A DNA stretch of 34,640 bases from a virus (Duplodnaviria; Heunggongvirae; Uroviricota; Caudoviricetes), in the IMG/VR virus record IMGVR_UViG_2877285697_000008, positions 1 to 34,640 of that record. The stretch is one strand, 5' to 3'. The notes under the pieces were generated by a model. It saw only the letters and a list, made by a program, of their open reading frames with translations. It did not search any database and was not told the DNA's origin. This document shows, one piece after another, positions 23,909 through 30,858 of the stretch. How positions within the stretch are numbered: the first letter of the stretch is position 1; each line of letters starts with the position of its first letter. The translations under genes and the position numbers were made by a program.

Positions 23909-23980
23909 TGAAGTGGCACACTGAATTTGGCCACCTGAACAGAGGTGATATGCTCACCTCAGAACAACACAGGTGCTCCA

Positions 23981-24283
23981 ATGAAAAAAAGAAATTTTAG
24001 CGCAGAGTTTAAACGCGAATCCGCTCAACTGGTTGTTGACCAGAAATACACGGTGGCAGATGCCGCCAAAGCTATGGATGTTGGCCTTTCCACAATGACA
24101 AGATGGGTCAAACAACTGCGTGATGAGCGTCAGGGCAAAACACCAAAAGCCTCTCCGATAACACCAGAACAAATCGAAATACGTAAGCTGAGGAAAAAGC
24201 TACAACGCATTGAAATGGAGAATGAAATATTAAAAAAGGCTACCGCGCTCTTGATGTCAGACTCCCTGAACAGTTCTCGATAA
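23981..24283 (+). CDS. IS911 OrfA
   Basis: [49 protein letters not shown]..., recalled as IS911 OrfA; the track ORF starts 12 codons upstream. Confidence 0.9.
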
Positions 24284-24309
24284 TCGGGAAACTCAGAGCG
24301 CATTATCCT

Positions 24310-25149
24310 GTGGTCACACTCTGCCAAGTGTTCGGGGTTCATCGCAGCAGCTACAGATACTGGAAAAACCGTCCTGAAAAACCAGACGGCAGACGGGCTG
24401 TATTACGCAGTCAGGTACTTGAGCTACATGGCATCAGCCATGGTTCGGCCGGAGCAAGAAGCATCGCCACAATGGCAACCCGGAGAGGCTACCAGATGGG
24501 ACGCTGGCTTGCTGGCAGGCTCATGAAAGAGCTGGGGCTGGTCAGCTGTCAGCAGCCGACTCACCGGTATAAACGTGGTGGTCATGAACATGTTGCTATC
24601 CCTAACTACCTTGAAAGGCAGTTCGCCGTGACCGAGCCAAATCAGGTGTGGTGCGGTGATGTGACCTATATCTGGACGGGTAAGCGCTGGGCGTACCTCG
24701 CCGTTGTTCTCGACCTGTTCGCAAGAAAACCAGTGGGCTGGGCCATGTCGTTCTCGCCGGACAGCAGGCTCACCATGAAAGCACTGGAAATGGCATGGGA
24801 AACCCGTGGTAAGCCCGGCGGGGTGATGTTCCACAGCGATCAGGGCAGTCATTATACGAGCAGGCAGTTCCGGCAGTTATTGTGGCGATACCAGATCAGA
24901 CAGAGTATGAGCCGGCGCGGAAACTGCTGGGATAACAGCCCAATGGAACGCTTCTTCAGGAGTCTGAAGAACGAATGGATGCCGGTGGTGGGTTACGTAA
25001 GCTTCAGCGAGGCAGCTCACGCCATAACGGACTATATCGTTGGATATTACAGCACACTAAGACCGCACGAATATAACGGTGGGTTACCCCCAAACGAATC
25101 GGAAAATCGATACTGGAAAAACTCTAACTCGGTGGCCAGTTTTTGTTGA
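24310..25149 (+). CDS. IS911 OrfB (DDE transposase domain)
   Basis: 279-aa ORF with IS3-family DDE region (...[11 protein letters not shown]...[13 protein letters not shown]...). Confidence 0.9.
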
Positions 25150-25347
25150 CCACTTCACTTCCTGTGATTTACTGTTATCGCTGCCTGTCACAATAGGTTG
25201 CTTTAATTCTTCCTCATCACTCACTCCTGCGACGCTCCGTGGCAGGGCCCCCCACAGGAGTACCTTGTAAATGTAAGGTGTTTAAGCCTAAATTAAGTCG
25301 TATCACGGTTAAATAGCAAAGAAAAATTCACAGAAGGAAAGACATTG

Positions 25348-25857
25348 ATGGAGTGGATAAATGCTTTGATGAACTATTTTGTACTTCATCCATATCGCCT
25401 ATGGGGGCTTCTTTTTATAATAGCGTTCACAAAATCCACTTTACTCATTTCGTCGATATTGCCACCAGCATCAATTATGATGGCCACTGTAATTACAGTC
25501 AGCAAGACGACTCTTTCACCATGGGAAGCTGGAATCACGGTCATGAGTGGCGCATGGTGCGGTACTATCGTTAATTACCATCTTGGTATAATAATTGGGC
25601 ATATCCCTCAACTTGCATGTATAATATCGAGCCGTTCCAATACAATAGAACGGGTTCGCCTTCAGTTGCAAAATAACTCTGTGTCAATACTTTTCACTTC
25701 GCGCTTTATCGCCGTGCTGCGTTATATTGCTCCTTTGGTGGCAGGAATGTTGCAACTTCATCCAGTGAAAGTGTATACAGTGAGTCTGATTTCAGCTGCT
25801 AGCTGGTCAGCACTTTATGTTGGTAGTTTTAGCTTCGTGTTGCCTTTTTTTAGCTAA
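25348..25857 (+). CDS. DedA/YqaA-like small integral membrane protein
   Basis: 169 aa, multiple hydrophobic helices, Gly-rich mid-motif; AGGAAA RBS; lies in an AT-rich 853-bp segment bracketed by inverted IS911 copies. Confidence 0.5.
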   Translation: MEWINALMNYFVLHPYRLWGLLFIIAFTKSTLLISSILPPASIMMATVITVSKTTLSPWEAGITVMSGAWCGTIVNYHLGIIIGHIPQLACIISSRSNTIERVRLQLQNNSVSILFTSRFIAVLRYIAPLVAGMLQLHPVKVYTVSLISAASWSALYVGSFSFVLPFFS

Positions 25858-26018
25858 ACTGCCCATAAAAAGCTCTTGCGAATCCAGCTTCCCCCATTCC
25901 TCTGACAACAGAATCTGATTTGAAGGATAATGAGTAAAATTACCGCTACCCCCCAAGGCATTGGATCCTGATGTACTCCTGAAGCATTCTCAATGCTGTC
26001 TGGTCGCTGATGAAGTGG

Positions 26019-26858
26019 TCAACAAAAACTGGCCACCGAGTTAGAGTTTTTCCAGTATCGATTTTCCGATTCGTTTGGGGGTAACCCACCGTTATATTCG
26101 TGCGGTCTTAGTGCGCTGTAATATCCAACGATATAGTCCGTTATGGCGTGAGCTGCCTCGCTGAAGCTTACGTAACCCACCACCGGCATCCATTCGTTCT
26201 TCAGACTCCTGAAGAAGCGTTCCATTGGGCTGTTATCCCAGCAGTTTCCGCGCCGGCTCATACTCTGTCTGATCTGGTATCGCCACAATAACTGCCGGAA
26301 CTGCCTGCTCGTATAATGACTGCCCTGATCGCTGTGGAACATCACCCCGCCGGGCTTACCACGGGTTTCCCATGCCATTTCCAGCGCTTTCATGGTGAGC
26401 CTGCTGTCCGGCGAGAACGACATGGCCCAGCCCACTGGTTTTCTTGCGAACAGGTCGAGAACAACGGCGAGGTACGCCCAGCGCTTACCCGTCCAGATAT
26501 AGGTCACATCACCGCACCACACCTGATTTGGCTCGGTCACGGCGAACTGCCTTTCAAGGTAGTTAGGGATAGCAACATGTTCATGACCACCACGTTTATA
26601 CCGGTGAGTCGGCTGCTGACAGCTGACCAGCCCCAGCTCTTTCATGAGCCTGCCAGCAAGCCAGCGTCCCATCTGGTAGCCTCTCCGGGTTGCCATTGTG
26701 GCGATGCTTCTTGCTCCGGCCGAACCATGGCTGATGCCATGTAGCTCAAGTACCTGACTGCGTAATACAGCCCGTCTGCCGTCTGGTTTTTCAGGACGGT
26801 TTTTCCAGTATCTGTAGCTGCTGCGATGAACCCCGAACACTTGGCAGAGTGTGACCAC
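26019..26858 (-). CDS. IS911 OrfB
   Basis: Near-identical to 24310-25149. Confidence 0.9.
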
Positions 26859-28698: not shown

Positions 28699-29195
28699 TG
28701 TCGCCATCATTACGCAAGGCTGTTGCAGTTGCTATTGGTGGCGGGGCTGTTGCTATAGCATCTGTGTTAATCACTGGCCCAGGTGGTAACGATGGTCTGG
28801 AAGGTGTCAGCTACATACCATACAAAGATATCATTGGTGTATGGACTGTATGTCACGGACACACCGGAAAAGACATCATGCCTGGTAAAACGTATACCGA
28901 AGCAGAATGCAAAGCTCTCCTGAATAAAGACCTTGCCACTGTCGCCAGACAAATTAACCCGTACATCAAAGTCGATATACCGGAAACAACGCGCGGCGCT
29001 CTTTACTCGTTCGTTTACAACGTGGGCGCTGGCAATTTCAGAACATCGACGCTTCTTCGCAAAATAAACCAGGGCGATATCAAAGGCGCATGTGACCAGC
29101 TACGTCGCTGGACATATGCTGGCGGTAAGCAATGGAAAGGGCTGATGACCCGTCGTGAGATTGAGCGTGAAGTCTGTTTGTGGGGGCAGCAATGA
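28698..29195 (+). CDS. R: SAR endolysin (T4-lysozyme-like muramidase, phage 21 R-like)
   Basis: 165 aa; N-terminal signal-anchor-release segment ([18 protein letters not shown]) followed by a Glu/Asp/Thr catalytic region; start overlaps the holin stop. Confidence 0.85.
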
Positions 29196-29609
29196 GCAGA
29201 GTCACCGCGATTATCTCCGCTCTGGTTATCTGCATCATCGTCTGCCTGTCATGGGCTGTTAATCATTACCGTGATAACGCCATTACCTACAAAGAGCAGC
29301 GCGACAAAAACGCAAGAGAACTGAAGCTGGCGAACGCAACCATTACTGACATGCAGCAGCGCCAGCGTGCTGCTGATGCACTCGATGCTAAATACACGAA
29401 GGAGTTAGCCAATGCGAAAGCTGAAAATGATGCTCTTCGGCGCAAGCTTGATAATGGTGGTTGGGTGCTCGTCAAAGGAAAATGCCCTGTGCCATCCTCA
29501 GCCGAAACCTCCAGCGCCTCCGGCATGGGCAATGATGCCACCGTCGAACTCTCTCCAGTTGCTGGACGAAACGTTCTCGGTATCCGGGACGGAATCATCA
29601 TGAAGTGGC
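29192..29609 (+). pseudogene. Rz: Rz i-spanin, C-terminally truncated by IS911
   Basis: [34 protein letters not shown]... matches the lambda Rz N-terminus; native reading ends at the IS911 junction (29609/29610) and the last ~30 residues of the track ORF are IS-encoded. Confidence 0.8.
29412..29603 (+). CDS. Rz1: Rz1 o-spanin lipoprotein, embedded in the +1 frame of Rz
   Basis: Lipobox LIMVVGCSS and Pro-rich mature region ([16 protein letters not shown]), as in lambda Rz1. Confidence 0.75.
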
Positions 29610-29681
29610 TGAAGTGGCACACTGAATTTGGCCACCTGAACAGAGGTGATATGCTCACCTCAGAACAACACAGGTGCTCCA

Positions 29682-29984
29682 ATGAAAAAAAGAAATTTTA
29701 GCGCAGAGTTTAAACGCGAATCCGCTCAACTGGTTGTTGACCAGAAATACACGGTGGCAGATGCCGCCAAAGCTATGGATGTTGGCCTTTCCACAATGAC
29801 AAGATGGGTCAAACAACTGCGTGATGAGCGTCAGGGCAAAACACCAAAAGCCTCTCCGATAACACCAGAACAAATCGAAATACGTAAGCTGAGGAAAAAG
29901 CTACAACGCATTGAAATGGAGAATGAAATATTAAAAAAGGCTACCGCGCTCTTGATGTCAGACTCCCTGAACAGTTCTCGATAA
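29682..29984 (+). CDS. IS911 OrfA
   Basis: Identical protein to copy 1 OrfA. Confidence 0.9.
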
Positions 29985-30010
29985 TCGGGAAACTCAGAGC
30001 GCATTATCCT

Positions 30011-30850
30011 GTGGTCACACTCTGCCAAGTGTTCGGGGTTCATCGCAGCAGCTACAGATACTGGAAAAACCGTCCTGAAAAACCAGACGGCAGACGGGCT
30101 GTATTACGCAGTCAGGTACTTGAGCTACATGGCATCAGCCATGGTTCGGCCGGAGCAAGAAGCATCGCCACAATGGCAACCCGGAGAGGCTACCAGATGG
30201 GACGCTGGCTTGCTGGCAGGCTCATGAAAGAGCTGGGGCTGGTCAGCTGTCAGCAGCCGACTCACCGGTATAAACGTGGTGGTCATGAACATGTTGCTAT
30301 CCCTAACTACCTTGAAAGGCAGTTCGCCGTGACCGAGCCAAATCAGGTGTGGTGCGGTGATGTGACCTATATCTGGACGGGTAAGCGCTGGGCGTACCTC
30401 GCCGTTGTTCTCGACCTGTTCGCAAGAAAACCAGTGGGCTGGGCCATGTCGTTCTCGCCGGACAGCAGGCTCACCATGAAAGCGCTGGAAATGGCATGGG
30501 AAACCCGTGGTAAGCCCGGCGGGGTGATGTTCCACAGCGATCAGGGCAGTCATTATACGAGCAGGCAGTTCCGGCAGTTATTGTGGCGATACCAGATCAG
30601 ACAGAGTATGAGCCGGCGCGGAAACTGCTGGGATAACAGCCCAATGGAACGCTTCTTCAGGAGTCTGAAGAACGAATGGATGCCGGTGGTGGGTTACGTA
30701 AGCTTCAGCGAGGCAGCTCACGCCATAACGGACTATATCGTTGGATATTACAGCACACTAAGACCGCACGAATATAACGGTGGGTTACCCCCAAACGAAT
30801 CGGAAAATCGATACTGGAAAAACTCTAACTCGGTGGCCAGTTTTTGTTGA
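30011..30850 (+). CDS. IS911 OrfB
   Basis: Identical protein to copy 1 OrfB. Confidence 0.9.
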
Positions 30851-30858
30851 CCACTTCA

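Follow-up and report, generated by a model that had tools for sequence, protein, structure and literature searches.

Inversion of a lysis and tRNA gene segment between IS911 copies in an ipaH-carrying prophage remnant

The DNA analysed here, a window of 34,640 nucleotides (IMG/VR record IMGVR_UViG_2877285697_000008, positions 1 to 34,640), holds a prophage whose tail genes lie on one strand and whose tRNA and lysis genes lie on the other, between two oppositely oriented copies of IS911. Does this arrangement reflect an inversion, and if so, did an exchange between the two IS911 copies cause it? The original prediction, that homologous recombination between inverted IS copies flipped the lysis cassette, was followed up by comparing every piece of the window with related prophages and every IS911 end with its flanks.

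Identity and layout of the prophage remnant

What the window preserves is a defunct lambdoid prophage that carried ipaH and a myovirus tail, now riddled with IS elements, at the ybhA–pgl site, where prophages of this type are found in EIEC and Shigella. All of its phage pieces are found, at 99.3–99.9% identity, in one intact prophage of E. coli FDAARGOS_944 (NZ_CP065613.1, 4286289–4329172, at ybhA/pgl), which served as the reference (positions prefixed P). This prophage has the co-linear order int, early genes, Q-like gene, tRNAs, S-R-Rz, DedA, terminase to capsid, tail, and ipaH. The two share attachment-site neighbours, int, lysis cassette, DedA gene, tail, and ipaH, and in the source genome ybhA and modC adjoin the int end, with the original attachment site kept. 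The window differs from the reference by the loss of ~12 kb of early genes, ~1.6 kb around the Q-like gene, and ~6.8 kb from terminase to capsid, and by 10 IS copies or fragments, a frameshifted ipaH, and the inverted lysis segment. Judging from ipaH, the IS repertoire, and the literature, the host chromosome is of the Shigella/EIEC type; IS1, IS2, IS4, IS600, and IS911 are the types expanded across all Shigella (PMC7373316). We found no support for the label "SfV-like" that had been attached to the relatives of this prophage, as Shigella phage records matched through IS1 only and the tail proteins belong to E217/PhiTE-type Pfam families.

Open reading frames and Pfam domains gave the strands that had been claimed: minus for tail and head-tail genes, plus for the int remnant (33879–34640), and plus for tRNAs, S, R, and Rz. 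The tail and head-tail module (9017–23908, minus strand, Pfam; 99.8–99.9% identical to P42339 through P30029, reversed) has all of its ORFs (9269–23796) on the minus strand, is interrupted by IS1 (17023–17792, where a 9-bp overlap at the site is the target duplication), and ends in the last ~71 nt of the major capsid gene (23838–23908). IS911 copy 1 (23909–25157, plus strand) follows and stands in place of P23190–30031, the terminase, portal, and head-morphogenesis genes and most of the capsid gene. Next comes segment B (25158–26010, minus strand, oriented as the tail; 99.9% identical to P23189 through P22337), which comprises the Rz 3′ end (25946–26007, minus strand, with a TCA duplication copy at 26008–26010) and then a DedA gene (25345–25857, plus strand, Pfam VTT_dom), and ends just short of the gene preceding terminase. 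IS911 copy 2 (26011–27259, minus strand) adjoins the Rz 3′ part with its right end and the start of the inverted segment with its left end.

The inverted piece, segment C (27260–29600, plus strand; 99.7% identical to P20000 through P22339), starts with the last 43 nt of the Q-like (DUF1133) gene and a leader. It continues with four tRNA genes of the rare-codon type (27492–27802, plus strand: Ile2-CAU, Arg-UCU, Thr-UGU, and Gly-UCC), a P21-type holin S (28483–28698, plus strand, Pfam Phage_holin_2_1), the endolysin R, a lysozyme (28698–29195, plus strand, Pfam Phage_lysozyme), and the Rz 5′ part, which ends in TCA (29192–29600, plus strand, Pfam Phage_lysis). IS911 copy 3 (29601–30858, plus strand, including a 9-bp tip duplication) adjoins the Rz 5′ part with its left end and the interior of IS4 with its right end. 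This 777-bp IS4 fragment (30859–31635, minus strand, Pfam Nterm_IS4 and DDE_Tnp_1; 100% identical to 4627–5403) runs from the element end that precedes the transposase gene through the stretch encoding the N-terminal part of the transposase. Beyond it lies a 50-bp remnant of an early/nin-region gene (31636–31685, minus strand, P18439 through P18390) in the same orientation as tail and int, and then an IS600 copy (31682–32948, minus strand; RefSeq "IS600 family" features lie under its match to the twin copy at 6636–7902) that bridges the ~12-kb early-region deletion (about P6385–18389). The integrase gene remnant (32947–34640, plus strand, P6384 through P5468, Pfam Phage_integrase) is cut short by IS600 and split into 32947–33102 and 33871–34640 by IS1 (33103–33872, 9-bp duplication).

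The lysis and tRNA segment is inverted

Compared with the FDAARGOS_944 prophage and seven other genomes, only 27260–29600 maps in the opposite orientation. The position between IS911 copies 2 and 3 was thus as predicted, and the right-hand end, which had been put at 29609, was not: phage DNA stops at 29600, and 29601–29609 is the tip of copy 3. The canonical co-oriented order is present in all seven other genomes with the same prophage, and the lysis cassette is co-oriented with the structural genes in each of the six E. coli genomes that hold segment B; intact relatives therefore show the native orientation to be the one expected, and no opposite-strand arrangement. Among ten other contexts of the same endolysin, nine have terminase or portal genes downstream, co-oriented with the lysis genes, and the tenth has only tail-fibre-type genes, past IS copies. 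The cassette itself is of the phage-21 type, with holin, endolysin, and Rz adjacent, co-oriented, and downstream of a Q-type gene; in relatives the Q-like DUF1133/Phage_antitermQ gene stands upstream, of which the window keeps only the final 43 nt. Flipping segment C back gives the predicted order, Rz 5′ – IS911 – Rz 3′ – DedA – IS911 – capsid 3′ end – head-tail – tail.

We considered whether the lysis cassette and tail might come from two unrelated prophages joined by IS activity, so that nothing was inverted. The deposited phage closest in its tail, vB_EcoM-606R2 (96–98%), does have a lysis cassette without a nucleotide match to that of the window. This idea is refuted by FDAARGOS_944 and at least six further genomes in which the two modules sit within a single prophage at 99% identity or more (99.7–99.9% between the window and the FDAARGOS_944 prophage), and by the perfect rejoining of the Rz halves described below; we give it virtually no chance of being right. 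A seemingly second split Rz, in E. coli VL40 (matches to B and C 675 kb apart), proved to be two prophages with similar lysis genes, of which the relevant one is intact.

A wrongly oriented 2.3-kb segment between 1.25-kb inverted repeats could also be an assembly artefact. Short reads do not resolve the orientation of such a segment, and in three draft assemblies the sequence is interrupted within IS911 to either side of segment B. The inverted state is nevertheless found in two independent complete assemblies, CP026827.1 (100% identical to the window) and CP119450.1 (1 SNP), which differ in size (4,558,619 versus 4,641,624 bp) and accession series and are the only retrievable complete genomes of this lineage (n = 2, both inverted). 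We consider an artefact highly improbable. Scans of genome contigs and metagenome contigs for the junction pattern of an un-inverted intermediate (C – IS911 – B) found none.

A target duplication split between two IS911 copies

The three IS911 copies, 1249 nt each, differ from one another at only two positions, 875 and 1146, and are 99.8–99.9% identical to RefSeq copies of "IS3-like element IS911 family". They have the terminal inverted repeats TGAAGTGG.../...CCACTTCA and the size (~1250 bp) of the family, and in copy 1 orfA (23945–24283) encodes HTH_Tnp_1 and orfB (24310–25149) encodes rve/rve_3 (Pfam). RefSeq gives identical elements a "programmed frameshift", with which the orfA/orfB layout seen here appears to agree. 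The copies also share with IS911, a copy-out/paste-in element of the IS3 family, the 3-bp length of the target duplication: external copies with the same ends carry the 3-bp duplications TAC and TAT, which confirm both the boundaries and the duplication length. Copy 3 departs from the standard element in that 9 bp of its left-end tip are duplicated in tandem (TGAAGTGGC, 29601–29609), which brings it to 1258 bp; this variant is 99.92% identical to an IS911 that lies within cas3 of E. coli O121 201805972.

Read in the orientation of each IS, the flanks are AAG/CTT for copy 1, AAC/TCA for copy 2, and TCA/CAT for copy 3. No copy has its own two-sided duplication, as the original prediction had stated, although a duplication does exist: one TCA lies at the left end of copy 3 and the other at the right end of copy 2. 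This is sharper, positive evidence of exchange between copies than the absence of duplications, and we conclude that the split TCA is the signature of an exchange between inverted IS911 copies. The Rz gene bears this out. Its 3′ end was located, with the TCA, at 25946–26010 on the minus strand; segment B is contiguous with Rz in six E. coli genomes, and in the reference the two Rz break points overlap by 3 bp. With one of the two TCA copies removed before joining, the Rz 5′ part (to 29600) and the reverse complement of 25946–26007 match an intact Rz at 471 of 471 nt and 156 of 156 aa. The results so far show that the segment is inverted, that its end points lie exactly inside the IS911 copies, that one target duplication is split, and that both modules come from one prophage.

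Of the two reciprocal flank pairs, the TCA pair alone survives; AAC at the left end of copy 2 does not match CAT at the right end of copy 3. This mismatch means that a simple insertion cannot be demonstrated for the second parent element and that a further deletion (P18440–19999 and part of IS4) has to be assumed. The flanks of copy 1, AAG and CTT, are reverse complements of each other; no rearrangement model fits them, and chance (1 in 64) accounts for them adequately.

Two other arrangements of paired repeats were rejected. In a composite transposon (IS911 – cargo – IS911) the outer flanks should agree and the cargo should be foreign to the DNA around it; the flanks are TGA and CAT, and the Rz 5′ end of the cargo is continuous with the outer Rz 3′ part in relatives. 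A switch of the Gin/Cin/Hin type likewise flips a phage segment between inverted repeats, but here the repeats are entire insertion sequences, and the segment breaks Rz in two where such a switch would exchange one gene end for another. We found no serine invertase or short crossover sites, the borders being IS911 copies only; the sole invertase remnant of the reference prophage is on the far side of ipaH, in a part that the window does not cover.

Route of the exchange and its consequences

We favour, with a probability of about 0.8, a history in which IS911 inserted into Rz and then underwent homologous exchange with an inverted IS911, flipping the lysis/tRNA segment. A 1258-bp variant with the duplicated left-end tip would have entered Rz and made the TCA duplication; as TCA adjoins the outer tip of copy 3, this variant moved as a unit. 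A second, inverted IS911 would have stood at the end of the Q-like gene, its own duplication already lost through an adjacent deletion reaching into IS4. Reciprocal homologous exchange between these inverted 1.25-kb repeats would then have flipped 2.34 kb, from the Q-like 3′ end across the four tRNAs, S, and R to the 5′ part of Rz. It would have left Rz 5′ joined to the left end of copy 3 and Rz 3′ joined to the right end of copy 2. Copy 1 would mark a separate event, the terminase-through-capsid deletion.

We infer the order of these events, and also that the exchange was host homologous recombination (RecA-type) rather than transposition. In the transposase-mediated course, IS911 (or a dimer of it) in Rz attacked the end of the Q-like gene on the same molecule, so that one event inverted the DNA and made the second, inverted copy. 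IS3-family dimers are known to promote deletions and inversions, as established for IS30, IS2, and IS911, and the predicted topology is the same, with Rz 5′ on a left end and Rz 3′ on a right end of different, inverted copies. The new 3-bp duplication that this course would leave at the copy 2 left and copy 3 right ends is absent, however (AAC versus CAT), and the right end of copy 3 adjoins the IS4 interior rather than the reference sequence before P20000, so that a further deletion would still be needed. Copies 2 and 3 also differ, in the tip duplication and at 1146, and are thus not fresh replicas. We regard transposase-mediated inversion as unlikely.

The same markers bear on the parents of the two copies. 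Copy 2 has the consensus haplotype 875G/1146G without the tip duplication, and copy 3 has the tip duplication with 1146A. The sole full-length external variant with the tip duplication is 1146G, and 1146A was seen elsewhere only in copy 1, whose 875A is private to that copy of this strain. All four combinations of tip duplication and 1146 allele therefore exist, the pattern expected after a crossover. Together, the tip duplication and the 1146 SNP indicate that copies 2 and 3 descend from two different parent elements, which favours homologous recombination over a duplicative transposase event, although the SNP evidence consists of one informative site and one external full-length variant, and other histories would suit the markers too if the crossover fell in the last 103 bp, or if mutation or gene conversion came later. 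With only two variable sites, one of them private to copy 1, the position of the crossover cannot be fixed.

A second parent element without a duplication would also suit a more elaborate course, in which the local inversion is what remains after two or more larger rearrangements, such as nested inversions via IS911 copies elsewhere in the chromosome. Shigella chromosomes have hundreds of IS insertions and large IS-bounded rearrangements (PMC7373316; PMC8092226). This course is less parsimonious, as everything outside segment C follows the order of the reference and stays at the original ybhA/modC site, and the split TCA requires just one exchange, and we consider it distinctly improbable.

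With the Q gene, early region, and head genes already gone, the inversion that we attribute to a single homologous exchange is probably without function. One could imagine that the tRNA/lysis segment is a reversible flip-flop, mixed in the population, whose orientation matters because the tRNAs are kept by selection and expressed in an orientation-dependent manner relative to IS911 or host promoters. No feature here speaks for such a function, and we think it very improbable.

Inversion by homologous recombination via inverted IS copies has been described for the IS-rich genomes of Shigella, Yersinia pestis, and Bordetella. The present case resembles these in that near-identical inverted 1.25-kb repeats exactly bracket the DNA, with end points inside the IS and a split duplication, and differs in being small (2.3 kb), wholly inside a prophage remnant, and with just one flank pair preserved. 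In Shigella, IS-flanked inversions are on record, some of them within prophages (PMC8092226). We conclude that the inversion is real but is IS-driven prophage decay that is ordinary for such genomes, and that it raises no new biological question. It does carry a warning for annotation, since the "truncated" Rz, the DedA gene, and the tail all belong to one prophage, and another for short-read assemblies, in which orientation between 1.25-kb inverted repeats is untrustworthy. Copies 1 and 3 are direct repeats and can delete the whole lysis/tRNA region. The locus is a clean, small example of how IS911 reshapes and kills a Shigella-type prophage, through an insertion into Rz, two deletions, and one inversion.

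Orientation of the lysis segment

Self-comparison of the window yielded three IS911-sized repeats, at 23909-25157 (plus strand), 26011-27259 (minus) and 29610-30858 (plus), numbered here copies 1, 2 and 3 from left to right. Each is 1249 nt long, with IS positions 875 and 1146 the only sites of difference among them; RefSeq-annotated IS911 elements match them at 99.8-99.9% identity, and their encoded proteins are HTH_Tnp_1 and rve. Tail and head-tail ORFs lie on the minus strand, an integrase remnant at the right end on the plus strand, and four tRNA genes (27492-27802) together with a P21-type holin, a lysozyme and an Rz gene running into IS911 on the plus strand between copies 2 and 3. 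The original prediction had this strand layout right, with int and the IS911-bracketed lysis genes and tRNAs opposed to the tail genes.

The tRNA anticodons are CAT (Ile2/Met), Arg-TCT, Thr-TGT and Gly-TCC. All four genes are intact in this otherwise wrecked prophage, and selection for rare-codon supply is a possible cause of their retention. The leader between the tRNAs and the holin gene S (27200-28700) holds 7 terminator-like hairpins versus 1.5 expected, and a strong one, at 28416-28442, immediately precedes the start of the holin gene.

The closest deposited phage for the tail, vB_EcoM-606R2 (96-98% identity), carries its lysis genes co-directional with the structural genes; at the nucleotide level its lysis cassette does not resemble that of the window, so on this comparison alone the two modules could still derive from two unrelated prophages. 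The lysis segment and the 853-bp stretch separating copies 1 and 2 were used as queries against complete E. coli genomes. In FDAARGOS_944 the two pieces adjoin, with a 3-bp overlap, in one intact prophage between ybhA and pgl, which settles the question against unrelated prophages. This reference runs int, xis, early genes, a Q-like DUF1133 gene, four tRNAs, S, R and Rz, followed by a DedA gene on the opposite strand, then terminase, portal, head, head-tail, tail and tail-fibre genes and ipaH.

The window maps onto this prophage at 99.3-99.9% identity throughout (P, reference prophage coordinates). The parts reversed relative to it are ipaH to tail fibre (1-3612), the tail as far as the capsid 3' end, interrupted by IS1 (9017-23908), the Rz 3' end and DedA (25158-26010, P23189 to 22337; segment B), a short piece at 31636-31685 (P18439 to 18390) and int, split by IS1 (32947-34640). 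The remaining intervals are insertion sequences, which have no orientation against the reference: an IS cluster (3613-9016), IS911 copies 1 (23909-25157), 2 (26011-27259) and 3 (29601-30858 with its duplicated tip), a 777-bp IS4 fragment (30859-31635) and an IS600 (31682-32948). Only 27260-29600 (P20000 to 22339; segment C) lies forward, and it is thus inverted with respect to all other pieces to its left and right. Three stretches of the reference are deleted in the window: the early region (about P6385-18389), the surroundings of the Q-like gene (P18440-19999) and the genes from terminase to capsid (P23190-30031).

Ten genomic places carry the same head-tail gene. The order is canonical and co-oriented in seven of them, where segments B and C are at least 99% identical, and two, which are the source lineage, have the inversion. 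In the last, IS911 lies immediately upstream of terminase and the lysis region is gone; this element (L031 2325-3573; GCA_900448095.1 UFYX01000005.1) is 99.8% identical, Q and DedA are absent along with the lysis genes, and the place represents an independent case in which the lysis region was lost in association with IS911. Ten other contexts of the identical endolysin were compared: lysis is co-oriented with terminase or portal genes in 9/9 that have such genes downstream, and the tenth (L018) has downstream only IS copies and tail-fibre-type genes. CP026827.1 (100% identical to the window over the 19.3 kb compared) and CP119450.1 (1 SNP) are complete chromosomes of unequal lengths with the same inverted arrangement. 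Segment B forms an isolated contig with IS911 at both ends in three draft assemblies. We conclude that the inversion of segment C is real and that its anatomy is now precise.

IS911 junctions and the mechanism of inversion

The 5' part of Rz, ending in ...GGAATCATCA at 29600, adjoins the left end of copy 3, and the 3' part, TCAGCGACC... as the reverse complement from 26010 downwards, adjoins the right end of copy 2. Because the intact gene reads ...GGAATCATCAGCGACC... across the break, TCA is present at both break points; the halves joined minus one TCA match 471/471 nt and restore all 156 aa of the reference Rz. External IS911 copies that share these ends carry 3-bp duplications (TAC, TAT), which validates the IS911 boundaries in the window. 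The Rz junctions have the look of one simple IS911 insertion in Rz after exchange with a second, inverted copy. The other reciprocal flank pair is mismatched (AAC left of copy 2 versus CAT right of copy 3) and the right end of copy 3 adjoins the interior of IS4, indicating that a deletion had already removed what originally lay to the right of the second parent element. Copy 1 likewise marks a deletion, standing in place of about 6.8 kb from terminase to capsid. Its flanks, AAG (23906-23908) and CTT (25158-25160), are mutual reverse complements (chance 1/64); they are fitted by none of the rearrangement models tried.

At the start of copy 3 the 9-bp left-end tip is duplicated in tandem (TGAAGTGGC TGAAGTGGC...), with the outer copy at 29601-29609. 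The same 1258-bp IS911 variant also lies within cas3 in E. coli O121 201805972 and VL7S7, and a truncated form on ETEC plasmids. Since the TCA duplication adjoins the outer tip, the 1258-bp variant transposed as a unit. Six external IS911 copies, one of them with the tip duplication, have G at both 875 and 1146, as does the full-length external variant with the duplication. Copy 1 has no tip duplication and A at both positions; its counterpart in CP119450.1 has 875G and 1146A, which makes 875A private to the window's strain. Copy 3 (duplication, 875G, 1146A) thus pairs a left marker that is rare with a right marker whose only other occurrence is in copy 1 next to it, and copy 2 (no duplication, G at both) has the complementary combination.

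Such a pattern would be expected of a crossover between two different parent elements, although with one informative SNP this evidence is thin. In the proposed mechanism, two pre-existing, different, inverted IS911 elements would have exchanged by homologous recombination, flipping segment C. The split TCA and the copy 2/3 markers make this, the recombination between inverted copies that the original prediction put forward, the best-supported reading. We put its probability at about 0.8, as the marker evidence is thin and a crossover near the right end of IS911 would be compatible with slightly different parents. An inversion made by transposase, with copies 2 and 3 as replicas from a single duplicative event, is opposed by their complementary markers, and we consider it improbable. 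An un-inverted intermediate with IS911 in Rz was not found, and junction scans of species-representative genomes and metagenomes were empty.

Insertion sequences and prophage decay

The window contains two IS1, one IS4 and a fragment, two IS600, three IS911 and one ISCro1-like IS66-family element. The mutually inverted IS1 copies, at 17023-17792 and 33103-33872, break the tape-measure/transglycosylase gene and int; each retains an intact 9-bp target duplication against the reference, and the roughly 15 kb between them has not inverted. The ISCro1-like element (3613-9016; 8-bp overlap in the reference) sits inside a tail-fibre gene, with IS4 (about 3978-5403) and IS600 (6636-7902) nested in it. 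The 4137-bp ISCro1::IS4 composite recurs in many E. coli genomes at 99.1% identity and therefore seems to spread as a unit. ipaH (1-1811) is frameshifted: compared with ipaHb of FDAARGOS_944, which is intact, it lacks 1 nt near 561 and is split into two ORFs (1..612 and 645..1811), so it is probably a pseudogene in this strain.

The five IS types that have expanded in all Shigella, and that also occur in EIEC, are IS1, IS2, IS4, IS600 and IS911 (PMC7373316). Structural variants flanked by IS elements have been described in Shigella, among them inversions and changes within prophages (PMC8092226). IS911 copies 1 and 3 lie 5.7 kb apart in direct orientation; recombination between them would remove DedA and copy 2 along with the tRNAs and lysis genes, which makes the present structure potentially unstable. 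With Q, early and head genes gone, the lysis genes were already disabled. The inversion is a routine outcome of prophage decay driven by IS elements, and nothing indicates that it has a function.
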